Source: a virus
Taxonomy: Duplodnaviria; Caudoviricetes
Strand: one strand, 5' to 3'
Length of the DNA stretch: 58,295 bases
IMG/VR virus record: IMGVR_UViG_3300049489_000494
Span: 1-58,295 of that record
Below, in pieces: positions 6,283 to 58,028 of the stretch (within the stretch, counting starts at the first letter, position 1; the number at the start of each line of letters is the position of its first letter). The position numbers and the translations under genes are program-made. The notes below the pieces were generated by a model. The model saw only the letters and a program-made list of their open reading frames with translations. It was not told the origin of the DNA and did no database searches.

Positions 6283-6781
6283 TATCAGTGTACAAGTACT
6301 ACTATGTGGGATTGCACTCATGAATCTACATGGAGCTAGGATGCATGATGATCAGTGGGATTCGTTGATAGCACTAGCATCTCATTCCGATAATACCGAT
6401 GTAGCAATAATCGGGTGGATGGAATCTCGCTACCATTATAATATCAGGAGTAGTGCGGGGGCGATAGGGGTGATGCAGGTAATGCCGAGAACTGCACGTG
6501 GTATTGCAATTGAGTGTGGTGTATCTGATATACATTACAGCAGTCCTCTGCCAACTGTCGCAAGACAGTTGACTAATCCAGATATAAATGTTAGAATAGG
6601 TATATGCTATTGGGAGATGATGCTGCAACTGACTGGTGATAGAATAAGTAAGGCGCTAATAGCATACAATGCAGGATTAACTAGACGTAATAATAATGTG
6701 GCACTACTGCCACGTGAGACAATTAACTACGTTACACAATTCCATGTGTACAGAGAGGAGCTAGGACAATGTCGAGACTGA
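6272..6781 (+). CDS. SLT-family lytic transglycosylase with hydrophobic N-terminus
   Basis: Catalytic ES motif (WMESRY), SSAGAIGVMQVMPRTA, NPDINVRIG, AYNAG, LPRETINYV. Confidence 0.9.
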   Translation: MLGSISVQVLLCGIALMNLHGARMHDDQWDSLIALASHSDNTDVAIIGWMESRYHYNIRSSAGAIGVMQVMPRTARGIAIECGVSDIHYSSPLPTVARQLTNPDINVRIGICYWEMMLQLTGDRISKALIAYNAGLTRRNNNVALLPRETINYVTQFHVYREELGQCRD

Positions 6782-7527
6782 GGATTACTACTTATATTAT
6801 CATCACATGGCTACTATTCAATGTGATACATGCTATTACAGCTAGAGCATCCAGCTACAATGCAGTACCTGAGCGTACATTATATATCACAGGTTCCATA
6901 GGAGGACTCTCAATTCTCAAGCAAGCACAGCAACTCCTGAACATGAGTGACTCATCACATGATCCTATCTATCTAGTTATCAACTCACCTGGTGGTGAGG
7001 TAATTACAGGCACACAATTCGTCAGTGCTATGCGTGTGGCGAAGGCACGTGGAGTAGTCCTCAAGTGCCTAGTACCAATGGCTGCAGCATCAATGGCATT
7101 CATTATCTATAACGAGTGCAGCGAGAGATATGCTCTCTCACAGTCGCTATTCCTATGGCATTCCATACGCAGTATGTTATTAGGTGTCTACACTCCAGCT
7201 GAATTAGGAATCATACAGGCAGATATGCTTAGATTCCAATCCAATTTCGACTCACTCATGCAGAGTGAATTAGATATCTCAGCTGAGGAATTCTATTATC
7301 ACTACCACAATAACTCATTACTACCAGCACTATATCTACACTCCATATCACCCTATTACATGACACTAGTAGATGATATAACTGGAGTACTCAATGTGTA
7401 TGATGTAGTGGGTACTGGTGGGGATAAGAGGGAGCAGGGTGAGGTAGGTGAATCTGGTATCAATAATAATCTAATCTGGTTCGGAGAGTGGAACACTAGG
7501 GAGAATACTAATGTCAGAGGACACTAA
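6769..7527 (+). CDS. ClpP/crotonase-fold serine protease with N-terminal signal or TM segment
   Basis: LVINSPGGEV, AASMAF (catalytic Ser), FLWH (His). Confidence 0.8.
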   Translation: MSRLRITTYIIITWLLFNVIHAITARASSYNAVPERTLYITGSIGGLSILKQAQQLLNMSDSSHDPIYLVINSPGGEVITGTQFVSAMRVAKARGVVLKCLVPMAAASMAFIIYNECSERYALSQSLFLWHSIRSMLLGVYTPAELGIIQADMLRFQSNFDSLMQSELDISAEEFYYHYHNNSLLPALYLHSISPYYMTLVDDITGVLNVYDVVGTGGDKREQGEVGESGINNNLIWFGEWNTRENTNVRGH

Positions 7528-7849
7528 TACACAACACACAGAGGCTGAGCTAGCATTACTGGATTATAGACTACGTAGAATGTGGGAGGAGTATAATCTA
7601 GCCATTGCATCAGGTGGAGGCACTCCAACTCCAACTAGGGGGGCAACTGCTCCCGCTACACCAACTGAGTATGACTCAGGGGAGAATTCACTAGACATGT
7701 GGGTGAATGCTTGGGGTACTGGTGATGTTAATATAGATGCAGAGTATGTCAATGAGCAATGTGACTCACATGACTGGAGAGAATGGCCGCTAGATATAAC
7801 TAGACAATACTGCAGAGTATGTGGTATAGATGAGGGAGTGGAGGACTGA
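7511..7849 (+). CDS. hypothetical protein with C-terminal C-x-x-H...CxxC motif
   Basis: CDSHDW...YCRVCG. Confidence 0.6.
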   Translation: MSEDTNTQHTEAELALLDYRLRRMWEEYNLAIASGGGTPTPTRGATAPATPTEYDSGENSLDMWVNAWGTGDVNIDAEYVNEQCDSHDWREWPLDITRQYCRVCGIDEGVED

Positions 7850-8283
7850 TGAGCACTAATAACAATGTGAAGCAGATGAGTAAGAATAAGCAGCGTATTA
7901 AGGCGAAGCAGGAACAGAAGCGTATCGGGATGAGCACTTATATAAATGAGGGTCAGCTCAATCTCCGAGTGAAGTTAAGTATGCAGGAGTATGAGCGTCT
8001 GAAGTTGGCTGCTACAATATCAGGAGTTCATATGCGTGAGTGTCTCAAGCGTGGTATCTCTCTATATCATGACTTCATTATGCGAGCATATGAGAAACAC
8101 CAGACTGAGGTTAAGGCATTGAAGGAGAAGCAGAATGAGGTACAGATAGAGAACACTACTGATAATAATTCTAATGTGGAGGTAGATACTAATGAGCAGA
8201 CGGGTGGGAAATCCGAGAGCCTCAACACTGAGGGAGTTATGGCGAGTGAGCAATCATCGCTCTCTGATAGTACAGCAAGTTGA
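7849..8283 (+). CDS. hypothetical protein, possible ribbon-helix-helix DNA-binding domain
   Basis: LNLRVKLSMQEYERLKLAATISG strand-helix-helix pattern. Confidence 0.45.
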   Translation: MSTNNNVKQMSKNKQRIKAKQEQKRIGMSTYINEGQLNLRVKLSMQEYERLKLAATISGVHMRECLKRGISLYHDFIMRAYEKHQTEVKALKEKQNEVQIENTTDNNSNVEVDTNEQTGGKSESLNTEGVMASEQSSLSDSTAS

Positions 8284-8416
8284 AGGTAGACGTAGGGTAT
8301 GGATATTAGGTATGGGACCTGATGGTCAGCATATGATAGGATGGCCTGATGGCACTAGTGATATAACACAATATGATGCAGATGAGCATGGATGGGAATT
8401 GATCAGTGACAATTAG
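8192..8416 (+). CDS. hypothetical protein
   Basis: GGAGG RBS at about 8178; overlaps the tail of the upstream ORF. Confidence 0.5.
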   Translation: MSRRVGNPRASTLRELWRVSNHRSLIVQQVEGRRRVWILGMGPDGQHMIGWPDGTSDITQYDADEHGWELISDN

Positions 8417-9404
8417 TAGTGTGAATAATAGAATAGATATACGTAGATTAATGGAATCTGGATTAGCTAAACAGAATGCTGAATCTAGAGCACAGGAGTC
8501 ATTGAAGTTAGGTACATTGAGAGCTGGTAGTACTGGTGTAGTTCTACCAGATGGTCAGATATCAGGTATCTGTCATCGACTCTCACTAGCTAGATATCTA
8601 GGTAATTATACAGATGCAGATTCCTCACGAGCACTCATGTTCGAGGCAGGTAGAACTAATGAGGACATATGGGCTCAGCGTCTGAGGGATGCAGGACTAG
8701 TGATTAAACAGGAGGATGAGATTCCTATTAGATGGGAGTTAGATGGTGTAGTTATAACTGGTCGCCCAGATATTGTTATCATGGATGCTAGCGATAATAA
8801 TCGCCCCCAATTAGGATTGGAACTCAAGTTAGTCAGCTCACTATGGACAGGTAGAGATGTCCTCATCAATAGGAAACCTAAGTTCGATCATCTATGTCAG
8901 GCAGCTCATTATGGAATGCAATTAGGATGTGATTACGAGCTGTGGTACACATCACGTAGTGACTATGCAGTGAGTGGATGGGCTCAGAGATCCTTCCCTA
9001 CATCTGATAATTGTCCTGATGATATTAGAGATGGAATTCAATTCAATGAATCTGGTGGGAAGGAGAATGGGAAGTGTAAGAAGTTGCTACCATTCATGGT
9101 TGGGTATCGTCTAGTGTGGGTAGGTGATGATCTAGATGTCATTGATATACAACGGGGAACTAGAGTACAGACTCCTATAACTAGAACAGCTATTGCTAAT
9201 TACTATCGATATGTGTTATCATTAATTGAGGAGAAACAGTTGGGTAATAGACCAATCAATCTAGAATTCGATGGCTCACTCAGTGACTTCAAGAAGTGTG
9301 ACTATTGTGATCTAGCTCATATATGTAATACAGCTGAGACCAACTACCAGAAATGGGTTGATCTAGTAATGGCGAGATCTAGTATTATAGGTAGTACTAA
9401 GTAA
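8406..9404 (+). CDS. PD-(D/E)XK exonuclease, Cas4-like
   Basis: GRPDIV...LELK...QAAHY motifs; N-terminal Cys plus C-terminal CDYC-x5-C (Fe-S type). Confidence 0.8.
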   Translation: MTISSVNNRIDIRRLMESGLAKQNAESRAQESLKLGTLRAGSTGVVLPDGQISGICHRLSLARYLGNYTDADSSRALMFEAGRTNEDIWAQRLRDAGLVIKQEDEIPIRWELDGVVITGRPDIVIMDASDNNRPQLGLELKLVSSLWTGRDVLINRKPKFDHLCQAAHYGMQLGCDYELWYTSRSDYAVSGWAQRSFPTSDNCPDDIRDGIQFNESGGKENGKCKKLLPFMVGYRLVWVGDDLDVIDIQRGTRVQTPITRTAIANYYRYVLSLIEEKQLGNRPINLEFDGSLSDFKKCDYCDLAHICNTAETNYQKWVDLVMARSSIIGSTK

Positions 9405-9783: not shown

Positions 9784-9938
9784 TCGTCATGTAAATGTGA
9801 GGGATTAGATGTCAGATGCAGTCAGCAGTAAGTCGAAGCGATTGGGTGGATACGCAGGTTATTGGAAGCAGTTAGACATGCTCCACCTAGAATCTTCTAG
9901 GTGGAGTGATACTCAACTACTATCAGGAGTTACGGATA

Positions 9939-12158
9939 ATGAGCAGCCAAGTGATAACACACGAGGGGAATTCAGAGTACTCACTAGTAGTATCGGGGAT
10001 ATCACAACCACGGACAGAACTAATCGAGATAATAACTCAGCCAAGAAGGGGTGATATTGACCGAGTTATTACTCAGGCAGTTGCAGATGCAGCCATTGTA
10101 GCTCTAGATCTAGAGACTAATGGAACTGATGCAGTCGCTGGTGGTGTGATTGTGGGCCTTGCTCTCGCATGGGAGCAGGGCTCTTTCTATTTCAGTATTA
10201 GTAGTATGTCTACTGAGGATACACAATACCTCTACAATAGACTGAGGGAATTACCACTGATAGCACACAATGTATTCTTCGATGCATCATTCCTATATGA
10301 ACAAGTGGGATGGCTTAATTGGCAGTACTGTACATATGGTCTATATATGCATTGTGCTAATGAGGGATTCCCAGGTCAGGGATGGGGCCTCAAGAGAGCA
10401 CAAGTGGAGATGTTGGGATGGGCTGAATCTAATACAGAGATGTTGTATAAGTGGCTAGTGAACAATGGATATACAATGAGTAGTGATGAGACTAGACCTG
10501 ATCTCTCACAGATGTGGAGAGCACCCGCTGAGATACTAGGTCACTACTGTGCTCTAGATGCAGATTCTACATGGCAGTTATGGCATCACGTACTACGTCC
10601 AGTAGTTGAGAGATTCGAGGTACTCAATGAATATCATCAGCGTGATTATCTAGCTGAGGTATTAGTTCTGATAGAACAGAGGAAGCATGGTATCTATATT
10701 GATATTGATTCATTAACTACATATGCAGATGAGTTAAGGATACAGATCAATAATAATAATAATGAATTCCAGGAACTAGAGGTAGTACGTGTAATGACTA
10801 ATGATCGTATAACACGTGCGCTAGCTGAGCATGATCAGAAGCAGCCAGAGATGTATCGTGTAGTTAGATTGGGTGTAGAACCTCCTCGATTCAATAAGAA
10901 GGGGGGCGATAATAAGAATTGGATTAAGTGGTGCGAGAAGCGAGATAGACCTAGAGAGATATCGAAGTCGTACATCAATTGGGTAGATCGTAGGGAATCT
11001 ATACTGAATAATACACGTGGAGATTACACTGTGAATATCAACAGTGATCTACAATTAAGACATATATTCTATACTATATTAGGATTCCCAGTTAATCAAT
11101 ATACAGAATCCGGTCTACCATCTGTAGATGATCAGGCTCTCAGAGGACTAGGTGAGGTAGGTGCGCTCATAGCTAGGAATCGTGAGGTAGTTAAGGAGTT
11201 GAGTTACGTGGATTCCTACATAGAATTAGCTAGGGATAGTATATTGAGACCATCATTCCGAGTACCAGGAACTCTAACAGGCAGACTCAGTGGTAGAGAC
11301 CCTAATATACAACAGATACCTAAGTCGGCTAGAGTAATGGACACATTCCGAGCTAGAGATGGAATGGTATATGTAGATTGTGATCATACATCTATAGAGA
11401 ATGTAGTGCTTGCGGAATTATCTAGAGATACTACACTACTTAACTTGTATGGTCCTCATGCTAATCCAAATCATGATGCATATCTATATGTAGGAGCACA
11501 TCTACCTGTGATTGGTGATGCTATTAGGAGAGCTGGATATGATCCAGAGAATCCTACTCCAGATGGTAGAGATAGAGCGAAGCGTGATGCACGCAAGGAA
11601 AGAGGGATTGCTAAGGTGGTAGTATTAGCATCTAGCTACGGAGCTGGTCCTGGGAAGATTCATAGTACATTGACATCCTCTGGTGTAGATGTTACAATTA
11701 ATCAGGTTAGAACAATACATCGTGAATACTGGCAATTATTCTCAGGCATACGTAAATTCGAGGAGGTACTAATGGAGGAGTGGCGTGTTAATTCGGCAGC
11801 TAGTGGCAGCTCTAATGGATGGGTACTCAATGGTATTGGCAGACCAATATGTGTAGCTGAGTATCTAATGAAGGATATAGTGAATCGTGTAGTGCAGAGT
11901 ACAGCACATGATATACATATGATGTATATACGTATATTAGATTCGATATTCTCTAGTAGAGGATTGGATGTTAAGTGGATAATTGCCGACTTCCATGATC
12001 AGTCTATTGTAGAGTGTAGTCCTAATATTGCGAATGAGGTAGGTATGATAATGGGAGTAGAGGCATATGAGATACTCAATGCAGAACTAGGAGCATATAT
12101 ACCAATCCGAGGTGAGGCTCAGGTGGTAACTAATCTAACACAAGCGAAACTGGGATGA
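9939..12158 (+). CDS. polA: family A DNA polymerase with 3'-5' exonuclease domain
   Basis: Exo motifs DLET, HNVFFD, YCALD; TGRLSGRDPNIQQIP; motif A DHTSIE; motif B RGIAKVVVLASSYG; motif C FHDQ. Confidence 0.93.
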   Translation: MSSQVITHEGNSEYSLVVSGISQPRTELIEIITQPRRGDIDRVITQAVADAAIVALDLETNGTDAVAGGVIVGLALAWEQGSFYFSISSMSTEDTQYLYNRLRELPLIAHNVFFDASFLYEQVGWLNWQYCTYGLYMHCANEGFPGQGWGLKRAQVEMLGWAESNTEMLYKWLVNNGYTMSSDETRPDLSQMWRAPAEILGHYCALDADSTWQLWHHVLRPVVERFEVLNEYHQRDYLAEVLVLIEQRKHGIYIDIDSLTTYADELRIQINNNNNEFQELEVVRVMTNDRITRALAEHDQKQPEMYRVVRLGVEPPRFNKKGGDNKNWIKWCEKRDRPREISKSYINWVDRRESILNNTRGDYTVNINSDLQLRHIFYTILGFPVNQYTESGLPSVDDQALRGLGEVGALIARNREVVKELSYVDSYIELARDSILRPSFRVPGTLTGRLSGRDPNIQQIPKSARVMDTFRARDGMVYVDCDHTSIENVVLAELSRDTTLLNLYGPHANPNHDAYLYVGAHLPVIGDAIRRAGYDPENPTPDGRDRAKRDARKERGIAKVVVLASSYGAGPGKIHSTLTSSGVDVTINQVRTIHREYWQLFSGIRKFEEVLMEEWRVNSAASGSSNGWVLNGIGRPICVAEYLMKDIVNRVVQSTAHDIHMMYIRILDSIFSSRGLDVKWIIADFHDQSIVECSPNIANEVGMIMGVEAYEILNAELGAYIPIRGEAQVVTNLTQAKLG

Positions 12159-13416: not shown

Positions 13417-14931
13417 ATGTATATGTCAGGGACATTAATTAATGACAGCTCATCTATATTAGCGTCATTCCCATATCCACAGGCTAGGGAAGTACAATCT
13501 GAGTTGCTACAGGCAATTGAGAGAGATTGGAATTCAACAGATGTATTCGTAGTAGTGGCTCCAACAGCATCGGGTAAAACGGCAATATCTAGAACAATAG
13601 GTAAGTGGGCAGGTGACTACTCCATCATAACTCCTACCAATCTCCTAGTGAATCAGTACCTAGATGAGTTCCCAGATGAGGCTACCATACATAAGCAATC
13701 GTCATATCGATGTACTACATTCAGAGATCCACAGCAATCATGTGATGTCACTAAGAAGAAGACTGGAACTAGATGTCATGGTTGCCCGTATACTAGGGAT
13801 ATGATGAAGACTAAGTGGCGTGGAGGTGGTATATATAATTATCACACCTATCTAGCACATCGTATATATAGAGAGACCCTAATAATAGATGAGGCACATA
13901 ACATCCTCCCGCTGATACAGGATCGTGAGGGATTACTCCTATGGCAGCATGAATATAAGTGGGACGCACATACAATCAGAACATATGGAGATATACGTAA
14001 TTGGTTGAATTCACTACCTGAGTATACAATCAATGCAGATACTAAGTTACGGAAGTTGAGGGAAGATGTTAATTCAGATGCACCTAGATATGTAATCGAG
14101 AGAACTGAGATGTTGTGGAGTCAGGTTAAGTGGGCTAAGGGGGAGAGGCCAGAGGATAGACCAGTACTCAGAGTTAGACCTATAGATGTTAGAGATGCTA
14201 AGCCCGTAGTATGGCCATCTAGAGTGAAGAAATTGATACTCATGTCAGCTACTATATCTCCTGTGGATATTGAGGCTCTAGGATTATCTCGTCGTCGTGT
14301 TAGATACTACGAGTGTAGATCCCCAATCGCCCCCGCCAATAGACCGATCGTGTTCAATCCAATTACATCAGTTAATCGTAGTAGTATGACCACTGCCATA
14401 CCTAGATTAATGGATGATATAATCAACGGTATAATGCCCAACTACATAGGTGAGTCTGGAGTAATACATTGTACATACCAGATGTCTGCTCTCATTAATG
14501 ATGAGCTGAATAATAATCATCGATACGAATCTGTTAGAGGGTTATTCATGTTCCACGATCGAACTAATGCGAAGAGGATATATGATGCATGGCGTATGCC
14601 CCACAACCGAGGACGTGTACTAGTAGCGTGTGGTATGTATGAGGGATTGGATATAGTACAAGATCTAGGTAGGTGGCAGGTCATTGCTAAGGTGCCGTGG
14701 CCATCACTAGCAGATCCAGTAGTTAAACATCGTGCAGATAGGAATCAGGATTGGTATGCATGGGAGACACTGAAGCGACTCATACAGGCGTGTGGTCGTA
14801 TCTGCAGAACACCTACTGATTGGGGTGTTACATATATACTTGACTCATCATTCTATAGAGTGTACAATAACAATAGGAACCTAATACCACAGTGGTGGAT
14901 TGAAGCATTGGAGGTAATGCATGGCGAGTAG
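13417..14931 (+). CDS. DinG/XPD(Rad3)-like SF2 helicase
   Basis: Q-motif REVQ, APTASGKT, DEAH, SAT, EGLD...IAKVPWP, QACGRICR...DSSF; four Cys ending in CHGCPY. Confidence 0.88.
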   Translation: MYMSGTLINDSSSILASFPYPQAREVQSELLQAIERDWNSTDVFVVVAPTASGKTAISRTIGKWAGDYSIITPTNLLVNQYLDEFPDEATIHKQSSYRCTTFRDPQQSCDVTKKKTGTRCHGCPYTRDMMKTKWRGGGIYNYHTYLAHRIYRETLIIDEAHNILPLIQDREGLLLWQHEYKWDAHTIRTYGDIRNWLNSLPEYTINADTKLRKLREDVNSDAPRYVIERTEMLWSQVKWAKGERPEDRPVLRVRPIDVRDAKPVVWPSRVKKLILMSATISPVDIEALGLSRRRVRYYECRSPIAPANRPIVFNPITSVNRSSMTTAIPRLMDDIINGIMPNYIGESGVIHCTYQMSALINDELNNNHRYESVRGLFMFHDRTNAKRIYDAWRMPHNRGRVLVACGMYEGLDIVQDLGRWQVIAKVPWPSLADPVVKHRADRNQDWYAWETLKRLIQACGRICRTPTDWGVTYILDSSFYRVYNNNRNLIPQWWIEALEVMHGE

Positions 14932-15853: not shown

Positions 15854-15903
15854 TTCATAGTGAACATTAACTAATAATACCATGTGGTATATTGGAGATT
15901 AGT

Positions 15904-16236
15904 ATGGGATTATTCAGTGTTACATTACTATGTAGTATACCAGAGTGTAGTGCTCGGTGGGATGATCTCATCGAGCGAGATACTCGTGATGACACTCACA
16001 TCTGTGTGGAGTGTGGTGAGATGAGTGCCCGTAGAACTTGGTCTATTCCTAATATAGTAGGTAGGGAATCATATATAGATGGAGGTAGACGTAATGATTC
16101 CACCTACCAACGAGTGAAGGATGCTGCTAAGTTGGAATCCCAGATGTATAATCTACCACCAGATAAGAGGGGTGATCATGCTAATGAGATTAAGAAGTTA
16201 ATAGGTACTACTAGTAATAAGAAGGGAGATAAGTAA
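15904..16236 (+). CDS. FmdB-like zinc-ribbon protein
   Basis: C-x4-C...CVECG pattern; GGAG RBS before ATG 15904. Confidence 0.55.
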   Translation: MGLFSVTLLCSIPECSARWDDLIERDTRDDTHICVECGEMSARRTWSIPNIVGRESYIDGGRRNDSTYQRVKDAAKLESQMYNLPPDKRGDHANEIKKLIGTTSNKKGDK

Positions 16237-16595
16237 TGGGAGCTGATGGACATATTAGACTAATGGATCTAGATAAGTTAGTGAGAGATACTAATATGAG
16301 TGATGATAATCTATCTAAGTTCATAGAGATAATTAGAGATTCTATGTGTTATTTACAGAAGTTAGAGACTAGGAGAATAATAACTAATTACTGGGGTGAT
16401 AACATCTACAGCAATAGCCTTCTATATAACCTAGCCTATTATGGATATAATAAGGGTAACTGGGAGGATACATTCTACTATGATATAAGAATGAGTGAGA
16501 TAGAGAAGTGTGGGATAGATAGTCGAGTGATATTAGATTGGACTGATTATCTATGGAATAGTTGCTATATAACTGAATGGGAGGTATGGACATGA
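16236..16595 (+). CDS. hypothetical protein
   Basis: TAATG-coupled ORF. Confidence 0.65.
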   Translation: MGADGHIRLMDLDKLVRDTNMSDDNLSKFIEIIRDSMCYLQKLETRRIITNYWGDNIYSNSLLYNLAYYGYNKGNWEDTFYYDIRMSEIEKCGIDSRVILDWTDYLWNSCYITEWEVWT

Positions 16596-17352: not shown

Positions 17353-17650
17353 ACTACGTAATTATTATAGAATGAGGAATAGACCCGATGTATCTTGGGT
17401 ATATATAGATAGTGTCAATCCTGAGATTGTAGACTGGCAGTGTGGTGGTATATATCTACAAGGAGTAGGAGATGCATATGAATTACATAGAGGAACATGG
17501 TGCATGGATGGTCGTTACCAATTAAGTAGAGGTAGTGAATCACCTATGGATCTAACAGTAGAGCTAGGAGATAGAGTGCCTACATGGGGTGATCATATCA
17601 CATTAATTGAGGATATTGTGGATAGGGAGGATGTACCATGGTATATCTAA
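17342..17650 (+). CDS. hypothetical protein
   Basis: GGAGG RBS before ATG 17342 (MQLRLRNYY). Confidence 0.6.
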   Translation: MQLRLRNYYRMRNRPDVSWVYIDSVNPEIVDWQCGGIYLQGVGDAYELHRGTWCMDGRYQLSRGSESPMDLTVELGDRVPTWGDHITLIEDIVDREDVPWYI

Positions 17651-18186
17651 TAACATCAATGATAGTAATACTAGGAGCATGCAACATACCACATAGTGGA
17701 ATAATAGATGGAGGTAGTGAGGATGGATCTAACGGAGAGATTGGTACTGGGAGCAATACTCCTAGTGATCAATGTACTGCTAACCATAATAGTAATACGC
17801 CTGTTATTGCTACTCATACGATAATCAATGTAGTGATCGATGGTCAATTGAGGACTTGCACTCCTACTACTAGTATGTTATCATTGTTAGGAGACAATGG
17901 ACGTGGTGATCCACATGATGATCATAGTGATGATGGAGAGGAGGATGGAGAGAGCGATGGAGATTCTAATAATGATAGTGAGGGGGGCGATTCTACTACT
18001 GACAATAGTAACAATGTCTATAATAATAATTCCAATAATGGGAGCAATAGCAGTTCATCTAATGCATCGTCTAGCTCTGGATCGGGAGCGAGCTCTACGT
18101 CAGAATCAGGATCCACAGCAGAGCAGCAACAATCAACAGTCATAACTAATAATAACTCAATGGAGGTAATATACACATGCGATTGA
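17638..18186 (+). CDS. putative lipoprotein with Asp/Asn/Ser low-complexity region
   Basis: Hydrophobic leader ending in an LGAC lipobox. Confidence 0.6.
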   Translation: MVYLITSMIVILGACNIPHSGIIDGGSEDGSNGEIGTGSNTPSDQCTANHNSNTPVIATHTIINVVIDGQLRTCTPTTSMLSLLGDNGRGDPHDDHSDDGEEDGESDGDSNNDSEGGDSTTDNSNNVYNNNSNNGSNSSSSNASSSSGSGASSTSESGSTAEQQQSTVITNNNSMEVIYTCD

Positions 18187-30914: not shown

Positions 30915-31071
30915 ATCTATATCCCTATGCATTATCTATGTAATTGTATAATATGTAATACACTACTATGTATAACACTGTGAGTACTACTATGTCGTCG
31001 GCCCCTATCATCACCCCTCCTATTGTATAGCGGTGTGCATGGCCTCCTTAACTCTCTATGTATCTCACTGA

Positions 31072-42401: not shown

Positions 42402-42431
42402 GTTGGGTAGAGCCTCACAGCCCTACCCAAC
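42402..42431 (-). terminator. strong stem-loop right after the major capsid gene
   Basis: gttgggtag...ctacccaac 9-bp perfect arms, extended by G-U pairing on the - strand; no U-tract. Confidence 0.65.
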
Positions 42432-42440
42432 GATTAATTA

Positions 42441-43823: not shown

Positions 43824-43905
43824 ATTATTATTCCTATTCTGCTCATTCTAATGAGCTAATTAATTAATTCGAAGTTATGAGGGGGTGATCTAACCATTAG
43901 ATCTA

Positions 43906-45256: not shown

Positions 45257-47278
45257 TTATCCATTAGGTATCGGAGGTAATTCCGCAATAGCTGCCTGTT
45301 CCCCAGTATTACCAGCTACTGGGGGCATCGGACCTGCCATACCATCTGGCCCTGGAACTCCTGGACCTCCTGGCATCATCCCAGGCTGACCCTGACCCAT
45401 ACCACTTCGCTCCTGTGCAGCTATAGCAGCTCTATCATTAATATGCTGTATTATTAGAGGCTTGAGTGAGTCTTCCAAGTACTTATATTCCACAGTCATT
45501 ACATACTGTAGAGCATATGCCATCATATTCTCATGATCCTGTAACTGCTCTGGTGGTATATATGAACCAGTACTAATCATCTCCTCGAATATCTCCCTCT
45601 GACGATCCTCAGCTAATTGCATCATATCGTAGAGGCCCTCCAGCTCGTTCAACTTCATCATTTTCAATGAGACACGAGTTGGAACACCTGCCTTCTCGAA
45701 TAGAGGTTGGAGTGATAGGATCTCCTCACGTCTAGTCATTGGATCTAGAGATAGAGAGGCACCATACTCAACTACAATATCGAAGCCACCATCTATATCA
45801 GCTCCACGTATATCTACTGATTCTAGAGCCTTCTCCCTACCTAATACCTGTATCGTATGAGTAGTAGTCCAGTGCTTCTGTATGAGTGATAGGTAGCTCT
45901 TATATACAGCCTCAACGAATAGTACATACTTATTGAAGAGTCTACGTCTGATCATATTACCCTGATTAGTGGCATACTGCATGGAGAATCCAGATTGCTC
46001 ACGTGACTGCTGACCGAACATCGCCTCATTGACTCCAGACATATCATCTATACCTAGACGAATCTGATCTCTGAGTTGATTAACTGCGGGAGGTAGCGGC
46101 ATTGGTTCCATGAAGTGTGGAGGTTGTACTCCTGTGATTCGAATTACATCCCACGGTGAATTGGTGATGGAGTCGTCACTGATCTCAGCACCCTCTGGTA
46201 GGATAATCCTAGGTATTCCATGTGCCTGAACTGCATCTAGTATACTGGAGTCGAGACGACTGAGGATATCCTGTGGTCCTGTTATGTAGTCTACGAATGA
46301 GGCTCCCCACACACGATGCGCTATGTCTATATCTGTGAATATATGGTATGGTAATCTAGCCCTCTCAGGCATTTTCGAGATACCCTGCAATGTCTTCGCC
46401 TTCCCTGTACTGAATCTGAATGGGTTAGCCCCCACCTGACCTAATACAGTACCATCTGATAGGCAATAACAGAATCTACCTAGATACCCATTAGTAGGGA
46501 GACCTGTCTCCCAATACTCGTATATCTCAACCACATCATACTTAGAATCATCTAGAGTAGAATCATTAGCAGTACTACTTGGTGTACTACTACCACTACC
46601 ACCCTGAATGCGTGTCCTATCTATCAGCTCTCGATACTCAGGCCACTGGAATAGAGCCTCCTCGTATGGAATATAGCGTCTCTCGAATACATATCTAACC
46701 TCATCCCATGAGGATGGATCTGGATCTATGAACATGTTCCATGGCGATGGATTGACGAATGAGAGCTCTCCTTCCAGGGTTAACTCACCAGACTCATCGA
46801 TGTCAATAATATCACCCCTATTAGAGTCCCATATAGTCTTCATGAATCCTGAGCCATATAATAGAGTATCTAGTGATACCTGATCTATTCTCTCCTGCAT
46901 TTTATACTGTCTAATACCATAACGAACTAGACGATCTGCAGCATCCGCCTTCCTCCTATCATCCTGATCATTACTAGTAGGTCTAGCTATAACAGATGGA
47001 GGATTAGCTGATAACTGAGCATGTATGAATCTGAGATTCTTGAATGCATATATTAGGGATAGTGATGCACCTGAATTATTAGGTGCTGAGTCATCACCAA
47101 TTCCTGGATAGAATGTAGATAGAGGATTACGATGATTAGCTCCCTCAGTACCGTAGACAGTCCTCTCTGCTTCCTCCCACTTCCTCTGCATATCCTGCTT
47201 AGATTGAGTAGCATTCCTGAGTCTCCTCTGGAGATTCTGCTTCGCTAGATCAGCTGTCCATGGTTGTATCTTAGCCAT
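45257..47278 (-). CDS. portal protein
   Basis: 673 aa after the terminase; LLYGSGFMKTIWD, SPWNMFIDP, VEIYEYW, DMSGVNEAMFGQ; Gly/Pro/Met-rich tail. Confidence 0.88.
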   Translation of the reverse strand: MAKIQPWTADLAKQNLQRRLRNATQSKQDMQRKWEEAERTVYGTEGANHRNPLSTFYPGIGDDSAPNNSGASLSLIYAFKNLRFIHAQLSANPPSVIARPTSNDQDDRRKADAADRLVRYGIRQYKMQERIDQVSLDTLLYGSGFMKTIWDSNRGDIIDIDESGELTLEGELSFVNPSPWNMFIDPDPSSWDEVRYVFERRYIPYEEALFQWPEYRELIDRTRIQGGSGSSTPSSTANDSTLDDSKYDVVEIYEYWETGLPTNGYLGRFCYCLSDGTVLGQVGANPFRFSTGKAKTLQGISKMPERARLPYHIFTDIDIAHRVWGASFVDYITGPQDILSRLDSSILDAVQAHGIPRIILPEGAEISDDSITNSPWDVIRITGVQPPHFMEPMPLPPAVNQLRDQIRLGIDDMSGVNEAMFGQQSREQSGFSMQYATNQGNMIRRRLFNKYVLFVEAVYKSYLSLIQKHWTTTHTIQVLGREKALESVDIRGADIDGGFDIVVEYGASLSLDPMTRREEILSLQPLFEKAGVPTRVSLKMMKLNELEGLYDMMQLAEDRQREIFEEMISTGSYIPPEQLQDHENMMAYALQYVMTVEYKYLEDSLKPLIIQHINDRAAIAAQERSGMGQGQPGMMPGGPGVPGPDGMAGPMPPVAGNTGEQAAIAELPPIPNG

Positions 47279-47867: not shown

Positions 47868-50311
47868 CTAGATCTAACTCCTCTACCTATTCTACTATTC
47901 CCATTTCTAATACTCTGATTGCGCTGCTTCCTACGCTCATTCTCTAGGTATAACCACTCATGCCATGCTACAGGCTTGAGATTAGGATCTGCCTTCGGTA
48001 TTAGATCAGCGAAGTATTGAGCCGTATCTAGGAGATGGTAGCTCGATGCATTAACAATACGTGATTCTCCATTAGGAGCCCATCTACAACTACGGAATTC
48101 TCCGATTAGATTAGTACACTTCGGTGATATCAATAATCTAACTCCTAATGAACTACGTAAGCCCATTATTAGTTCAGCCTTTCTACTATTCTTATCATAG
48201 GGAGACATATATGGAGGGGTGATTCCAGCTGCAGCAGCTCTACCTAGATACCATGCCTCATGTGGATCACATATTCTCCTGATTATATTAACATGTCGAG
48301 TGCGCTCACGCATCTCCTCTACAATTCGAACAGGATCTAGTATATCCTCTATATACTCAGCAACTATACAATACCATATAGATGTAGCAGGATCCTCTGC
48401 CCAGAGTGTATATCCGAACTTAGACTTCAGTGCAGGATCTACTGATTCTACATGTCTCCATTGTGGGGAGTAGTTAATAGGCTCACGTACATGGATAGCA
48501 GGATCGAGCTCATATACAGAATCCTCACCAACAGACCATGCTCCATAGAGGATAGTATTGCGATACTCCTCTGTATATCCATTCAACTTATCTAGTTCCT
48601 CTTGTATACGAGCTGCATACAGTGGGTTATCCAATTTACTGAGTGAATACTTCCGGCCAGTAGGTTCACTAGCACTATCTACAATCTTCCTAATCTCATC
48701 ATTCCTGAACTTAGGAGTGAAGGTGGCTAGGAAGTAGCCATTACGTGCAGCAACTCGCTGTTGGAGCTCCTCTAATACATATATACTAGAAGGCATCTCA
48801 TCTAACCACACATAGTGAGCAACATAACCCTGCATGTGCTTCCTATGTTTCTCCGAACTATCATTATGTGATAGGAATACAATTGTATCTCCAGTATCAA
48901 TATTCTCTACTGACTGCAGAGATCCACCAACACGCCTCTCCTTCCATTTACTAGTATCTAGGAATTGTGCCAGCTTCTTCCCCCAGAGTTCTATGTCCAT
49001 CATCTTCCGGTCCTGACCTGCTACTATTATTAGTAGTGGTTCAGTTCCCCACTCAGCTGGACGTACCCATGTTGGATGTGTATTAGTTAGAATCCATGTG
49101 ATCTCACGAGCAGCTAGACCCGACTTACCTGAGTTATGAGTTACTAATCCATTTGCTAGACAGTATAGATTAGTTGAGGACTCAACATGTATATCATATG
49201 TATTCACTAACTCAGTAGATCCATTGTGCTTAGCTCCAATCCAATCAGGATTAGTTCTAGTAGCTACTAGATCTGAATATTCTGGCTTCCATTTCTTACT
49301 AGGAGTTACTAGATATGGATCTAACTCATGTAATATACGCTTAGAATATGCATTATTAGCACATCTAATTGAATATGTAGGGCCATTTACGAACTTATCC
49401 CTATCATTAGTATATATAGTTAATTGTGTCTGCCATAGAGCTAGAAATGCATATTGTAGTACTTCCAATACTGTCCTAGCTTGCATCTCAGTCGATATAC
49501 ATAATGTATTCCAACTATCCATGTAGATAGATCCATCAGTATCTATAATACCAGCTACGAATGCTAGTAATGTATCTCTATCCCATCCTCTAACTACATT
49601 GATATCTACCCATTTCTCATGAGCATATCTATCTCGGCACCATTCATTGTAGTACTTAACCTCAGCTCTGCCTATATGCCATGTATAATTCTCACCACCA
49701 CACTTAACTGCAGTAGTTCCACATATATTAGACAACTTATTAGGTATATTAGAATCAGCTGATGATATATAGATCTGCTTACCACCAGCCATACTACATC
49801 CATCACCTAGTAGTGCAGCTATTGCATAGGCCATATCAGGTTCATGTATACTACCAAGTGGAGTATTAAGTTCAACTCGACGAATCTGACTATCTCTATG
49901 GAATTTATCCACAGTTCTCTCACCATCCCTAGTTAGAAATGTATGGTTAGTTGTACACTTAGCTTGAATCATTCCTCTATTAGTTAGAGTTACTACTTCA
50001 CGGGGTCCATTATTGAATACCTGCAATACTCTGATAGGAGAACCATGTTCATTATATACTAGATCATCTATCCTGAGCTCCTCAATTGGTATTGGACCAT
50101 GAGGAGTTGCTACTAGGGTGCCCTCAGCTAGACATTGATTTCCTGCTACTACCCACCTGAATTTGATGAGTCCTATATCGTCTAGTATTGTCTGCTGAGC
50201 TGCTGTAGGTCTGGACGTAACATCAGACGGATCGAAGCATTCTGCTAATTGCAGTTGCCGCATTCTATTAACTGCGGATGCTACTAATTGTTGTTGTCTG
50301 ATGTCGGCCAT
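47855..50311 (-). CDS. terL: terminase large subunit, intein-interrupted
   Basis: Walker A AGNQ/SGKS re-forms after intein removal; Walker B VWLDE; FTP coupling motif; nuclease VDP...HLLDTAQY; likely start MADIRQ at 50311. Confidence 0.92.
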   Translation of the reverse strand: MADIRQQQLVASAVNRMRQLQLAECFDPSDVTSRPTAAQQTILDDIGLIKFRWVVAGNQCLAEGTLVATPHGPIPIEELRIDDLVYNEHGSPIRVLQVFNNGPREVVTLTNRGMIQAKCTTNHTFLTRDGERTVDKFHRDSQIRRVELNTPLGSIHEPDMAYAIAALLGDGCSMAGGKQIYISSADSNIPNKLSNICGTTAVKCGGENYTWHIGRAEVKYYNEWCRDRYAHEKWVDINVVRGWDRDTLLAFVAGIIDTDGSIYMDSWNTLCISTEMQARTVLEVLQYAFLALWQTQLTIYTNDRDKFVNGPTYSIRCANNAYSKRILHELDPYLVTPSKKWKPEYSDLVATRTNPDWIGAKHNGSTELVNTYDIHVESSTNLYCLANGLVTHNSGKSGLAAREITWILTNTHPTWVRPAEWGTEPLLIIVAGQDRKMMDIELWGKKLAQFLDTSKWKERRVGGSLQSVENIDTGDTIVFLSHNDSSEKHRKHMQGYVAHYVWLDEMPSSIYVLEELQQRVAARNGYFLATFTPKFRNDEIRKIVDSASEPTGRKYSLSKLDNPLYAARIQEELDKLNGYTEEYRNTILYGAWSVGEDSVYELDPAIHVREPINYSPQWRHVESVDPALKSKFGYTLWAEDPATSIWYCIVAEYIEDILDPVRIVEEMRERTRHVNIIRRICDPHEAWYLGRAAAAGITPPYMSPYDKNSRKAELIMGLRSSLGVRLLISPKCTNLIGEFRSCRWAPNGESRIVNASSYHLLDTAQYFADLIPKADPNLKPVAWHEWLYLENERRKQRNQSIRNGNSRIGRGVRSRWNR
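49133..50134 (-). mobile_element. 334-aa intein with LAGLIDADG homing endonuclease
   Basis: Starts CLAEGT, block B CTTNHTF, ends YDIHV...LVTHN followed by Ser; AALLGDG and AGIIDTDG motifs. Confidence 0.93.
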
Positions 50312-50789: not shown

Positions 50790-51305
50790 TTATACTATAC
50801 TATTACTATATAATTCCAACCACTCATCTAGAGCTCTAGGTCCATCTACTTCTAATCTAAGAGGTACAGGTAATCCTAGTATATCGATGAGTATATATCC
50901 TATTAGTTCACTGCACACTAATGTACGGGTACCGTCTGATGTAGGATTGGCACCTAATCTGAGTAATCTAGTTAGACCCATACCTAATATCTGTAGTGAT
51001 CCGTACTCCCGACCTGCTGTTAGGATACAGTATCTCATTAGTTCCTGATGCTGCTTCTCCGTCATATGTAGAGTATGTCGCTTAACTACTACATGATTAT
51101 GATCAAACTGTATCGCCCCCACGAATCTAACACCAGTTCCAACTGCTTCGTAGTTCAATTCTACATCCAATGTAGGTGAACGCCACTGTATTCCTACATG
51201 TGAATATGGAGTGCCCTCAACTGCCCTAATAGCGTAGGATAGAGGAGCGAAGCCTCTAGGTCTTGTGAATACTATATCTAGTTGTATTGAGGAACTACTA
51301 CTCAT
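50790..51305 (-). CDS. permuted papain-like NlpC/P60 (YiiX/YebB-like) hydrolase
   Basis: His before Cys: YSHVGI...YEA...GREYG...LVCSELI. Confidence 0.8.
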   Translation of the reverse strand: MSSSSSIQLDIVFTRPRGFAPLSYAIRAVEGTPYSHVGIQWRSPTLDVELNYEAVGTGVRFVGAIQFDHNHVVVKRHTLHMTEKQHQELMRYCILTAGREYGSLQILGMGLTRLLRLGANPTSDGTRTLVCSELIGYILIDILGLPVPLRLEVDGPRALDEWLELYSNSIV

Positions 51306-51306: not shown

Positions 51307-51957
51307 TCATGTCTTCTTATGTAGGAAGAAGTTACACTTCACAGATACAGTACTATTACCTGTATTAGTATAGACAATACGTATATATAGATTAGCTAAT
51401 ATACGTGCTGGATAATCCACCCTAACAGTTCCCTGATCCTGCTTAGATGAGGAGATCTGCCAATTAGTTGCGAATTCATTGAGTACTAGTCCAGCTCCAT
51501 ATCCTAGTACATTATCTACATCAACAACCTGGAACTTAATAGAATCTGTGAAGTTGTGATTCATGAGTATTAGTTGAGCCTCATTAATCCATCTCTCCTC
51601 AGTTAGTCGATAATCAATATTGGATACTGAGTTGGCAACTGCCTCCCCAATCACCCCTACTCCACGGAATAGATATCCATCTGTATTATTGAATGCTCTA
51701 GTTCTGATTATAGGATAACCATCGCTATCTAGATTAGGTATATCCTTGAGGTAGTTAATTGCTCTACTAATATCAGTTATATCACTACTACCATCATTAA
51801 CTACAGCAATTCCTGTAGCTATATGAGTTAATAATAGAGAGTCATTGGCCCATCTACTCAACTCCTGAGATTGAATCTCATACTGATCACTAGCCGCAAT
51901 CTCCATACCTGCATAGGTATGTGGTACTGAATCTACATTTCTAATTATATATAACAT
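51307..51957 (-). CDS. hypothetical virion-associated protein
   Basis: Clean ORF; likely start MLYIIRN. Confidence 0.6.
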   Translation of the reverse strand: MLYIIRNVDSVPHTYAGMEIAASDQYEIQSQELSRWANDSLLLTHIATGIAVVNDGSSDITDISRAINYLKDIPNLDSDGYPIIRTRAFNNTDGYLFRGVGVIGEAVANSVSNIDYRLTEERWINEAQLILMNHNFTDSIKFQVVDVDNVLGYGAGLVLNEFATNWQISSSKQDQGTVRVDYPARILANLYIRIVYTNTGNSTVSVKCNFFLHKKT

Positions 51958-52799: not shown

Positions 52800-52850
52800 T
52801 AGTGAATTCCTCCTCCATTAGTTAATTGTATTATTAACACACTATACATA

Positions 52851-53087
52851 TCACCCCTGATTATTCTCAGATTCAGTATTAGGTTCTGTCTCTGCAACTC
52901 TAACTACCTCAAATACATTAGCTCTAATTCTAGGTATTAGTTGAGATTGAGCCCATCCTAGTAGACGTACATACTCAATCATATCTAACTGCTTAATTGT
53001 GAATTCAGCATGTGAATTAATCATATTGAGTAACTTGATTAACTTCGATACATCGTCCTCTGAGAACTTATTATTAGGTAGACTCAT
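52851..53087 (-). CDS. hypothetical protein
   Basis: AGGAG RBS; has its own promoter. Confidence 0.65.
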   Translation of the reverse strand: MSLPNNKFSEDDVSKLIKLLNMINSHAEFTIKQLDMIEYVRLLGWAQSQLIPRIRANVFEVVRVAETEPNTESENNQG

Positions 53088-55483: not shown

Positions 55484-56039
55484 CTAATAATCCCTCAGAT
55501 AGGGCCTGATCTGCAGTCATTATATAATCACTGGTGCATCGCCTGCGCCAGTATTGAGCATTCTTACTACTATCCATCACACTACTACGTAGAGCATAGA
55601 TGTCATACATCTGCTTCCGTATAATGCGGGAATGATCAGCCCATCGTTCGAATGATATCGCCCCCGTCTCACTCGAATTAGTACCATCATGTATCATTAT
55701 TGTTGAGTGGCGTGTGGCCTCCCGTACATCTCCTGCCTGGAGAATAATGGAGGCCATCGACATTGCCTGTCCAACTACTCTGATACTTACCTCATGTGGT
55801 AGTGCACTGATGACATCGTATATCGCTATACCATGTTCCCAATCACCACCCTCAGAGTTGAGGTATATTACAATGGGCTGATCGCCCGACTTCCTTAGTA
55901 TATCTATGTTAGTGAGTGTCCTAGAGGTTAACTCCAGATCAATCTCACCGAATATGTTGATACTACGTGCTTCAACTGAGAGTCCCCATTCATGATATCG
56001 ATCAATCGAATCACCCCTTGTTGCCCTCCCCATCGCCAT
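55470..56039 (-). CDS. clpP: ClpP-family protease
   Basis: IYLNSEGG...GIAIYD, QAMSMASIILQAG (Ser), IMIH (His), DYIMTADQALSEGLLD (Asp). Confidence 0.9.
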   Translation of the reverse strand: MAMGRATRGDSIDRYHEWGLSVEARSINIFGEIDLELTSRTLTNIDILRKSGDQPIVIYLNSEGGDWEHGIAIYDVISALPHEVSIRVVGQAMSMASIILQAGDVREATRHSTIMIHDGTNSSETGAISFERWADHSRIIRKQMYDIYALRSSVMDSSKNAQYWRRRCTSDYIMTADQALSEGLLDVII

Positions 56040-56547
56040 CCGTATTATCTCCGTCTGCTAACTGTCGTTGATTCTGATTACCAGTATTGATTGTAACACC
56101 CTGTCTATCTAACCACTGCTGGAGCTCGTGTGGACCCATTCTATTGATCCTCTCATCTAGCAACTTCTCCTTAGCATACTTCCGTGGCATCTTATCAGTT
56201 GCCTCTAGGAGTAGCTTCGCTGCATTCACCCTAGCACTTGCATTAGCATCTGGATCTACCAGTAATTGTTCTAGGGTATCTAGAGCTATATGTGCTAGAT
56301 ACTCGGTCCTCTGTCTGAATTCATCCCTATTAGTGAACCATTCCCTGAATCCAGGTTGTGACCACCACTTCGACACCCGACCGTCATTAGTTATCTGCAT
56401 CACTGCAGCTAGTGTGATTGAATTACTGTCAGTAGTGGGATTATCACCCCATACTGCCCAGTATGCTGCCTTAACCTGTCTCTGTGTCGGAGTAGGTACA
56501 TATACCATATCCTCCACCAATGCTGCTATATTACTCAGATTACTCAT
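56011..56547 (-). CDS. putative terminase small subunit / HTH protein
   Basis: SKWWSQPGFREWF and ASARVNAAKLLLE helices; near the start of the packaging operon. Confidence 0.55.
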   Translation of the reverse strand: MSNLSNIAALVEDMVYVPTPTQRQVKAAYWAVWGDNPTTDSNSITLAAVMQITNDGRVSKWWSQPGFREWFTNRDEFRQRTEYLAHIALDTLEQLLVDPDANASARVNAAKLLLEATDKMPRKYAKEKLLDERINRMGPHELQQWLDRQGVTINTGNQNQRQLADGDNTDGDGEGNKG

Positions 56548-56946: not shown

Positions 56947-56975
56947 GTTATCCTAATACTAGTTGCCATGTAATT

Positions 56976-57004
56976 ATTGTATCATAGTTAGACAGTGAAG
57001 TCAA
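56976..57004 (-). promoter_or_regulatory. leftward sigma70 promoter (virion block)
   Basis: - strand reads TTGACT-17 bp-TACAAT with extended -10 TG. Confidence 0.7.
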
Positions 57005-57107
57005 GTGTTAATTATTATTAATAGTAGTAGTGTAGTAGTGATATTACTGGTCGAACTAACTACTAGATAGATAACAATCGATAATTACTAGTCTATCTAG
57101 ATAGTAG

Positions 57108-57135
57108 TTGACAATTCTGTGGTATGTGGTATAAT
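57108..57135 (+). promoter_or_regulatory. rightward consensus sigma70 promoter
   Basis: TTGACA-16 bp-TATAAT with extended -10 TG. Confidence 0.8.
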
Positions 57136-58028
57136 TAGAACATAGAGAGACTCATAGGAGTAATCATTGATGACATAGAAATCATAGATAATCACCTCTA
57201 TGCCCCTATGCCCTACTGGCGGGGTTAATTATATGATACATAGATTCATAGTATAGTTATACACTACATAGTAGTATCACTAGTGATACATTGAATCTAA
57301 GTATCTATGTAGTACTACATAGCAGTACCTATTGAATAGGGGCTCACTAGGTACACTACCTCATCTCTCGACATCCTACCTATCTCTACTCCTATTCCTA
57401 CTTATATATGCATTCTACCTATTAATTGAGTACTGGTTGTCAATAATGTACCTATTCGTGGGGGCGATATTACTCGGTCTCTATAGGGGCTCTATCTATC
57501 GAATATCATTATATATAGGAGCTAGTTACCAGTCCGACTCATAGCACCTCCCCGAGAATGTGAGGGGGTAACTTGCGATCTAGTCGAACATCAACCCACT
57601 TCCCGATTGGTCGATTGGCCAGTCAATTCATATATTCGATCCTACCACCCATTCATGATGCAATACCGCACGTGCGGTGACTAGTGTGTTGTGTTAGTAG
57701 TGGGGAGAAGTACGTCACCCCCCAATATCCTACGGTATACACGATGCAGTGACGCCTCTCCCTATTCATTATATACTATCCAACAATTGCCCAATTATAT
57801 GACGCATGTCTATATAGAGGGATATTCTATTAATATTCCAGTGATATCATATACATACGCACAATTAACTCATATAATTGACTAATCCATCGTCAATTCA
57901 CCCCTCAATGATTCCGCATAGTTAGCTAATCACCCCTAGAATTCATCAATGATATCACGGCTGGCATTAGTCCTGCAATATCTAGTTACGTCAGGCGATG
58001 AGTTAACCAGATAGAATGAGGTGAACTA

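Follow-up and report, generated by a model that had tools for sequence, protein, structure and literature searches.

Chi has been accumulated by phages at about one site per 1.9 kb, and the Chi-rich phages are strongly oriented (20:3 in LLS and 32:0 in MD8); in the lambdoid phages, Chi richness accompanies the absence of phage recombination genes (as reported in PMC12315714). Here we describe a 9-base word, GGGGGCGAT, that is dispersed over an uncultured freshwater-sediment phage, the IMG/VR record IMGVR_UViG_3300049489_000494 (Caudoviricetes), which was analysed over its full length of 58,295 bases (the window). Chi as found in phages (E. coli LLS and P1, Pseudomonas MD8) resembles it as a short, exact, G-rich and asymmetric word that lies in genes about once per 2-4 kb, and further points of likeness are that Chi is selected, specific to a phage-host pair and tied to recombination-dependent growth (in the account of PMC12315714). 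Unlike GGGGGCGAT, which is orientation-free (6:10 by strand), Chi is the host's word and is read by RecBCD in one orientation (same source).

Localized nick sites form a second group of such words. Phage tf (46 kb, with convergent gene arms) has 14 nicks with the exact 9-base consensus TACTRTGMC, and the nick words of tf, T5 and the phiKMV-like phages occur on one strand only, with relatives using slightly different words (as described in PMC3517423). An exact consensus of 7-9 bases with some 5-20 copies and few variants is much like what we found for GGGGGCGAT (16 exact copies and 4 one-mismatch neighbours), but the latter stands on both strands, and the portal of the window phage gave no match in cultured phages. 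The stoperators of Cluster A mycobacteriophages are 13-bp asymmetric words in up to ~30 copies that co-vary with their reader among relatives, follow the direction of transcription and serve as binding sites for the immunity repressor in these temperate phages (according to PMC6550527). GGGGGCGAT shares with them the character of a dispersed asymmetric word that differs between related phages. It is orientation-free, however, all its copies lie in open reading frames (ORFs), and no repressor or integrase match was obtained in profile scans of 60 of the 78 ORFs (the 10 largest against PHROGs alone, 20 against Pfam and PHROGs and 30 against Pfam alone, leaving out 18 small ones).

Uptake sequences have an exact core of 9-10 bases, lie mostly in ORFs, show no orientation bias and are evenly spaced (Karlin et al., as cited in PMC1939737). 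The best behavioural match to GGGGGCGAT, which is likewise exact, genic, evenly spaced and without orientation bias, is indeed formed by the uptake signal sequences and DNA uptake sequences of Pasteurellaceae and Neisseriaceae. These are carried by competent bacteria and read by a cell-surface uptake machinery, whereas the carrier here is a lytic-looking phage and the density is about three times lower than that of uptake sequences (about one per kb of the bacterial genome); to our knowledge uptake sequences are not known in phages. Finally, GGGGGCGAT overlaps the extended context GGGGGCGATCGC of the cyanobacterial HIP1 (GCGATCGC), but HIP1 is palindromic, the window holds no GCGATCGC, a C follows only one of the 16 copies of GGGGGCGAT, and a GGAG-type ribosome-binding site precedes most of the phage genes. 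Each phage-borne system tested thus has a defining feature that the word lacks, and the word is best filed as a dispersed recognition word. Its pattern also breaks the rule of polarity that holds for all phage-borne word systems described so far. A full-text search for GGGGGCGAT, made in main texts, gave only primers and unrelated sequences among the matches listed, and no paper that names it as a motif.

A DNA-level word written into genes through rare synonymous codons

The original prediction had listed 16 exact copies of GGGGGCGAT, 6 on the + strand and 10 on the - strand, and all of them were found at exactly the coordinates claimed (Table 1). Its estimate of well below one copy by chance was also confirmed: dinucleotide shuffles give 0.07 copies, none of 100 such shuffles reaches 16, and an order-2 Markov model gives 0.05. 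Three kinds of codon-aware null (300 shuffles each) gave means of 1.05-1.22 and a largest value of 4. Because one null copy is the unshuffled site at 28115, the in-gene expectation is only ~0.1-0.2 against 15 observed. When all 9-mers with at least 6 occurrences were ranked against the codon-shuffled genome, a check proposed beforehand, GGGGGCGAT was the top outlier (16 vs 1.13, z 13.7), and the next unrelated 9-mer followed at z 7.2.

The word is exact. The one-mismatch copies GGGGGTGAT predicted at 19069, 43881 and 58163 are present and one further neighbour, GGAGGCGAT, was found at 37888, which makes a total of four against 7.9 in shuffles, a somewhat depleted number (P=0.025). Each of the 16 GGGGGCG heptamers continues with AT. 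The flanking positions hold almost no information, which rules out a longer hidden motif. The GC content (41%) and the mean spacing (3,643 bp) agree with the ~40% and ~3.6 kb given earlier. The genic placement of the copies stood as well, but the count of 15 out of 16 did not, since an ORF on the - strand (27480-28310) covers the copy at 28115 as well and all 16 are therefore genic; no copy was found between genes, in the ~8% of the sequence that is intergenic.

Another important observation was the extent to which the proteome is used for writing the word. There are 29 positions at which the encoded protein permits GGGGGCGAT, and 16 of these opportunities (55%) are occupied, whereas for 150 control words with the same letters permuted the median share is 0 and the maximum 23% (this highest value comes from a member of a separate family of 12-bp repeats). 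In the sense direction the word reads G-G-D (five times) or x-G-A-I (seven times, always as GGG GCG ATA) and in the antisense direction I-A-P (twice) or x-R-P-Q (twice), which bears out the claim of different frames: the exact 9-mer is found in two sense and two antisense frames. The form GGG GGC GAT encodes 5 of the 7 GGD tripeptides, 7 of the 8 GAI tripeptides that follow a codon ending in G carry GGGGGCGAT, and so do both IAP tripeptides. The codons involved are rare, as had been noted (GGG 10%, GGC 10%, GCG 7%, GCC 7%, CCC 6% and CGC 4% of the codons for their amino acids). The earlier view that peptide constraint is inadequate as an explanation thus holds, given the rare codons and the 16 of 29 opportunities taken against a median of 0 for the permuted controls; codon usage, codon-aware shuffles and permuted controls together rule out peptide or codon bias as the cause of GGGGGCGAT.

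Alignment with distant relatives was possible at 13 of the 16 sites, the other three having no alignable homologue. At 12 of these 13 the word occupies ordinary aligned residues, some of them conserved (e.g. GAIG of the SLT domain, or the helicase residues SPIAP, which are identical in relative G002), while the copy at 23935 lies within 8 residues that are absent from the single aligned relative (25% identity). Insertion of a 9-bp element is ruled out by these alignments (12 of 13 sites). The number of opportunities (28 when ORF 27480-28310 is left aside) is similar to that in the relatives (38 in G001 and 23 in G002), which indicates that GGGGGCGAT arose mostly through synonymous changes. We have thereby shown that GGGGGCGAT is a DNA-level word under positive selection, written into genes via rare synonymous codons. 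The earlier proposal of a selected cis-acting DNA signal is borne out in this respect by the codon-aware and Markov-aware nulls and by the use of 16 of 29 opportunities, while the four mechanisms offered with it stay candidates. Some factor must read GGGGGCGAT on the phage DNA, and for this factor we have candidates only.

With respect to transcription, 12 copies are sense and 4 antisense. This excess mirrors the opportunities (23 and 6): 12 of 23 are used in the sense and 4 of 6 in the antisense direction (Fisher P=0.66), so that the use of GGGGGCGAT is orientation-free, in line with the earlier statement that there is no strict strand or transcription polarity. The first eight sites alternate in strand, yet a runs test gave P=0.14 and strand alternation was rejected. 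The copies are spaced more evenly than random points (coefficient of variation 0.61 vs 0.92, P=0.029), the smallest gap between them is 803 bp (P=0.02), and only 1.5% of random 16-of-29 subsets of the opportunities are equally even (P=0.015). Each of the 13 unused opportunities is found 43-2,422 bp from the nearest used copy, and the three largest gaps contain no opportunity, or none more than 1.8 kb from a used copy. The placement looks like the result of selection for chromosome coverage within the limits set by the proteins.

A second word, and private words in relatives

We also found a second word, GGGGTGAT, with 20 copies in the window (Table 1). Within genes there are 15 copies against ~2 expected, 15 of 40 opportunities being used; both orientations occur again, with 11 of 26 opportunities taken in the sense and 4 of 14 in the antisense direction. 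The two words divide the codon forms of similar peptides between them: G-G-D is written GGG GGC GAT and never GGG GGT GAT, R/W-G-D is written xGG GGT GAT and never xGG GGC GAT. These mutually exclusive forms indicate that GGGGGCGAT and GGGGTGAT are two distinct words and not one degenerate motif; jointly they take 14 of the 18 [G/R/W]-G-D positions. The idea that GGGGTGAT fills the gaps of GGGGGCGAT was not supported (P=0.32).

The existence of two related G-rich words bears on the possibility of lagging-strand priming, in which a primase would recognise the word (template ATCGCCCCC) and start primers on either strand. T7 primase sites form small families, which the two words resemble, and both strands are used with a fairly even spacing. 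Known primases, however, mostly recognise 3-5 bases, the spacing per strand (5.8-9.7 kb) is long for Okazaki fragments, and no primase family (DnaG/TOPRIM, AEP or prim-pol) was matched by the sequence profiles among the scanned ORFs. We regard priming as distinctly improbable.

A role at the level of RNA or translation (through pausing at a cluster of rare codons, through a Shine-Dalgarno-like site within genes, or through recognition of the RNA by a binding protein or an RNase) was also considered. Twelve of the 16 copies of GGGGGCGAT are sense, every codon in the word is rare, and GGGGTGAT can pair with what we take to be the 3' tail of the 16S rRNA. Nevertheless, such a role is very improbable: the sense excess equals the excess of opportunities (12/23 vs 4/6), no peptide or codon-pause model predicts the same 9-mer in two sense and two antisense frames, and GGGGTGAT is absent from both relatives G001 and G002 (0 copies each), though these presumably use ribosome-binding sites as well.

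Table 1. Positions of the copies of GGGGGCGAT and GGGGTGAT in the window. Residues are those that the site reads as.
Word	Positions	Strand	Orientation	Gene or location	Residues
GGGGGCGAT	6457..6465	+	sense	SLT transglycosylase gene 6272-6781	A-G-A-I (GCG GGG GCG ATA)
GGGGGCGAT	8800..8808	-	antisense	Cas4-like nuclease gene 8406-9404	N-R-P-Q
GGGGGCGAT	10902..10910	+	sense	family A DNA polymerase gene 9906-12158	G-G-D
GGGGGCGAT	14326..14334	-	antisense	DinG/Rad3-like helicase gene 13417-14931	I-A-P
GGGGGCGAT	17983..17991	+	sense	ORF 17638-18186	G-G-D
GGGGGCGAT	23935..23943	-	sense	1113-aa gene 22165-25506	G-G-D
GGGGGCGAT	28115..28123	+	antisense	ORF 27480-28310 (- strand)	Y-R-P-Q
GGGGGCGAT	30049..30057	-	sense	861-aa gene 28347-30932	M-G-A-I
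GGGGGCGAT	35420..35428	-	sense	1720-aa gene 31141-36303	V-G-A-I
GGGGGCGAT	36223..36231	+	antisense	1720-aa gene 31141-36303	I-A-P
GGGGGCGAT	38561..38569	-	sense	tail-fibre-like gene 38446-40317	E-G-A-I
GGGGGCGAT	39994..40002	-	sense	tail-fibre-like gene 38446-40317	G-G-D
GGGGGCGAT	42131..42139	-	sense	gene 41657-42331	G-G-D
GGGGGCGAT	51112..51120	-	sense	gene 50790-51305	V-G-A-I
GGGGGCGAT	55657..55665	-	sense	Clp-like head protease gene 55470-56039	T-G-A-I
GGGGGCGAT	57460..57468	+	sense	ORF 57332-57544	V-G-A-I
GGGGTGAT	2616..2623	+	sense		W-G-D
GGGGTGAT	6467..6474	+	sense	one base past the 6457 GGGGGCGAT copy	G-V-M
GGGGTGAT	10048..10055	+	sense		R-G-D
GGGGTGAT	16169..16176	+	sense		R-G-D
GGGGTGAT	16393..16400	+	sense		W-G-D
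GGGGTGAT	17586..17593	+	sense		W-G-D
GGGGTGAT (here GGGGGTGAT)	19069..19076	-	antisense		I-T-P
GGGGTGAT	22262..22269	+	antisense		I-T-P
GGGGTGAT	29149..29156	+	antisense		I-T-P
GGGGTGAT	31010..31017	-		intergenic by the gene list used	
GGGGTGAT	36980..36987	-	sense		R-G-D
GGGGTGAT (here GGGGGTGAT from 43881)	43882..43889	+		intergenic	
GGGGTGAT	46811..46818	-	sense	portal gene	R-G-D
GGGGTGAT	48216..48223	+	antisense	large terminase gene	I-T-P
GGGGTGAT	51650..51657	-	sense		G-V-I
GGGGTGAT	52850..52857	-		intergenic, immediately 5' of an ATG	
GGGGTGAT	56010..56017	-	sense		R-G-D
GGGGTGAT	56443..56450	-	sense		W-G-D
GGGGTGAT	57929..57936	-		intergenic	
GGGGTGAT (here GGGGGTGAT from 58163)	58164..58171	+		intergenic, immediately 5' of an ATG	

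The relatives of the window phage are distant. The closest portal relatives (IMG/VR and metagenome contigs) show 35-60% identity and the closest helicases, in a search of 5.8 billion protein clusters, at most 48%; a search for close relatives with the polymerase found none. The helicase search gave 841 matches at E<=1e-20, many of them on contigs of 57-61 kb, which indicates that the family is large and that the window phage stands in it as a deep singleton. Cultured phages gave no megablast match, nor did the portal give a tblastn match in 50,697 records, and an exact search of IMG/VR with the 18 bases at 6457-6474 returned one unrelated contig of 62% GC only. GGGGGCGAT itself is nearly absent from the relatives, with 2 copies in G001, none in G002, G003, G004 and G005, and 0-1 in the other loci; in terms of opportunities, 2 of 38 are used in G001 and 0 of 23 in G002 (60 kb each).

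Some of these relatives have words of their own. In G002 (loci L042-L044) the dispersed word ACTG[GA]CCG was found 24 times, with 14 copies on the + and 10 on the - strand; every frame is represented, and copies are both sense and antisense. Its form ACTGGCCG has 17 copies against 3.0 in the codon-aware null and uses 14% of its opportunities. A distant fragment of 12.7 kb (L036) carries 11 copies of TGGGGGAA between 2077 and 9990 (~8 kb), 4 on + and 7 on -, with 9 of 23 opportunities used (shuffles: mean 2.6, maximum 6). In G003, CGGAGAAT (7 copies in 30 kb) is a weak candidate only. Other candidates were rejected: GGCAATGCT of G001 is confined to one frame, and the matches in L033 and L053 are protein repeats or one-strand clusters. 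In L033, for instance, CTGCTGAC occurs 13 times on one strand within 1.4 kb (129-1539), as part of a repeated protein segment. Private words thus recur in the family and are not universal among the few genomes examined.

A private word, with other words in the relatives, would also be seen if GGGGGCGAT were a docking site for a sequence-specific DNA-binding protein of phage or host that organises, packages, replicates or marks the chromosome without cutting it. The orientation-free use and the fairly even spacing fit this possibility, as do some small ORFs in which DNA-binding-looking segments were seen by eye only (7849-8283, 56566-56946 and the CxxC...CxxC ORF 15892-16236). A lone asymmetric 9-mer without a partner half-site is, however, unusual for dimeric binders, no DNA-binding family was matched among the scanned ORFs, and all 16 copies lie in ORFs with none in intergenic sequence; on balance we find docking unlikely.

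Genome, samples and host

The window comprises the whole virus record. Its first and last 127 bases (1-127 and 58169-58295) are identical, forming an exact terminal direct repeat. The simplest explanation is an overlap left by the assembly of a circular or permuted genome, which gives a circular map of 58,168 bp; the label 'direct terminal repeats' is uninformative on the physical ends of the phage DNA. By profile matches we recognised genes for a family A DNA polymerase, portal and large terminase, a DinG/Rad3-type helicase, a Cas4-like nuclease, a metallophosphoesterase and, weakly, a Holliday resolvase, and further matches to SLT, two Clp-like proteases, GP88, DUF932, DUF6745, a tail chaperone and an SU10-type adaptor. 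The adaptor gene (36356-37318) matches the SU10 adaptor family with a Pfam E of 3.5e-17, a hint that the phage may be a podovirus built like SU10. One of the two Clp-protease-like genes (6769-7527) belongs to the early/replication arm, and the structural arm holds the other (55470-56039), which is of head-maturation type. Methyltransferase, primase, HNH/GIY nuclease, integrase and repressor families gave no match in the scanned ORFs, in line with a phage that looks lytic given the lack of an integrase match, and no tRNA genes were found in the window.

The composition of the window is unusual in several respects. The dinucleotide signature (CpG odds 0.48, AA/TT 0.55, TA 1.24 over the whole window) is accompanied by a low number of CGCG (3 observed, 18 expected) and by ATA as the main Ile codon (51%), and the CpG-containing GGGGGCGAT stands out against this CpG-poor background. 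The separate 12-bp repeat family, consisting of GGGACAGTGTGAG, CACACTGTCCC and variants, is found in a mini-gene region at 1703-5520 and elsewhere; its core words (16-29 copies) lead the plain k-mer ranking.

The genes are read on the + strand from ~57.3 kb across the origin to ~22 kb and on the - strand from 22 to 57 kb. Such arms converging near 22 kb, as well as a copy number like that of tf (16 in 58 kb), would suit localized nick sites of the kind known from tf, phiKMV and T5, with a late phage nickase cutting one strand at each copy before packaging. The known sites are one-strand sites, however; in this phage both strands have copies (6 on +, 10 on -), and the word takes up its antisense opportunities no less than its sense opportunities. 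Together with the lack of a nickase family match in the scanned ORFs and of a match of the portal in cultured phages, this makes nicking quite unlikely.

Runs from three studies, including a sediment metatranscriptome, contain sequence of the phage, and the contigs listed show no differences. Over 23501-43500 four runs were compared, by contigs only, and they show no differences at the word sites; the copy at 35420, one of the 8 sites of this region, is bridged by a contig of run X3 from another study (35306-35566) and is unchanged there, among the matches listed. Contigs of run X2 (the sediment metatranscriptome) match parts of the structural arm without differences, with carry-over of DNA being possible.

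A look-up of tail fibre clusters (Atlas) for the host gave only viral clusters, and the genome searches described next did not lead to a host either. In 401 genomes of one bacterial class (a ~1% sample) and 5 others, GGGGGCGAT occurs at most about once per 15-22 kb. The lack of a dense carrier among the 401 holds when G049, G151, G306, G318 and G258 are set aside. A scan of species genomes for inverted pairs of the word (at least 120 matches) gave scattered taxa or cyanobacterial HIP1 contexts (GGGGGCGATCGC) among the matches listed; cyanobacteria are frequent here because in HIP1-rich species (L097, L110, L168 and others) the palindrome is often extended to GGGGGCGATCGC. In the Magnetococcales genome G009 (L161), GGGGGCGAT occurs 172 times and the reversed control twice; many of the GGGGGCGAT copies form inverted pairs separated by a single base, suggestive of a palindromic repeat element. 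One Desulfovibrionaceae metagenome-assembled genome (L114, L134, L141, L159) has a repeated element holding the pair.

These data bear on the possibility that the word is shared with the host, as an uptake-like tag or the product of biased short-patch repair, and was acquired passively or by the same drive. Its behaviour matches that of uptake sequences (as described in PMC1939737) and its one-mismatch neighbours are depleted (4 vs 7.9, P=0.025). No dense carrier was found, however, in the genomes sampled (the 401 of one class and the matches listed in the pair scan), a pure drive would not cluster unused opportunities beside used ones, the phage is lytic-looking without an integrase match, and the window lacks GCGATCGC. 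A host-shared tag or mutational drive is in our view unlikely.

A candidate control word for a resecting enzyme

The asymmetry, exactness and orientation-free use of GGGGGCGAT suggest that its reader most likely scans or travels along the DNA, rather than being a dimeric repressor. We tentatively prefer, as a possibility rather than a probability, a Chi-like control word for a resecting helicase-nuclease, the putative reader. Among the mechanisms originally offered, one-strand nick sites and a Chi that is read from fixed ends are both made less likely by the orientation-free use; at two-ended breaks or permuted ends, on the other hand, both orientations would be useful. The replication genes moreover suggest recombination-dependent replication, no primase having been found in the scanned ORFs, and the gene set (PolA, the DinG-like helicase, the Cas4-like exonuclease, the weak Holliday-resolvase match and an Mre11-like phosphoesterase) fits the Chi-like interpretation. 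The reader might be a host enzyme of the RecBCD/AddAB type, or the DinG-like helicase of the phage together with the Cas4/RecB-like nuclease. Starting from any break or free end in the phage DNA, the enzyme would then reach a word within a short distance, cease to degrade the DNA and make a 3' tail for recombination-dependent replication; GGGGTGAT may be another word, selected independently, for this reader or one related to it.

Several observations weigh against a Chi-like word. No reader protein was found among the recognised genes, and no sampled genome comes near the density in the phage, the highest having ~210 copies in 4.6 Mb (401 genomes, one class). Chi-rich phages are biased in orientation, whereas here neither orientation is preferred (6:10 by strand), and Chi-rich lambdoid phages lack recombination genes, whereas exonuclease- and resolvase-like genes are present here. 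In relative G001 the codon-aware ranking gave no comparable dispersed word. The evenness statistics are modest (P 0.015-0.03), and with an opportunity count like that of the relatives there is no visible selection-driven amino-acid change.

A wider interpretation, which we consider doubtful, would extend to the family as a whole. Each member of a family of 58-61-kb freshwater and sediment phages would carry a private asymmetric 'self' word of 8-9 bases, synonymous, orientation-free and chromosome-covering, and a fast-evolving phage factor reading this word would spare or recombine the phage's own DNA while untagged DNA of host or rivals is degraded. The reader of the self word could be the DinG-like helicase with the Cas4-like nuclease, and the system a viral counterpart of Chi or of self-marking by uptake sequences.

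Few handles exist on how DNA is recognised as 'own', and short words spread over whole genomes (Chi, uptake sequences, nick sites, stoperators) are among them. The case described here is an unusually clean one, with an exact 9-mer at 55% of its opportunities, no orientation preference, coverage-like placement and private words in at least two relatives. If the phage encodes the reader, this would be a compact recognition module of 9 bp that can be reprogrammed; a reader from the host would mean that the word points to the host and to its Chi-like or uptake signal. Words of the GGGGGCGAT type also provide a simple, computable signature by which uncultured phages can be assigned to hosts or connected with one another.

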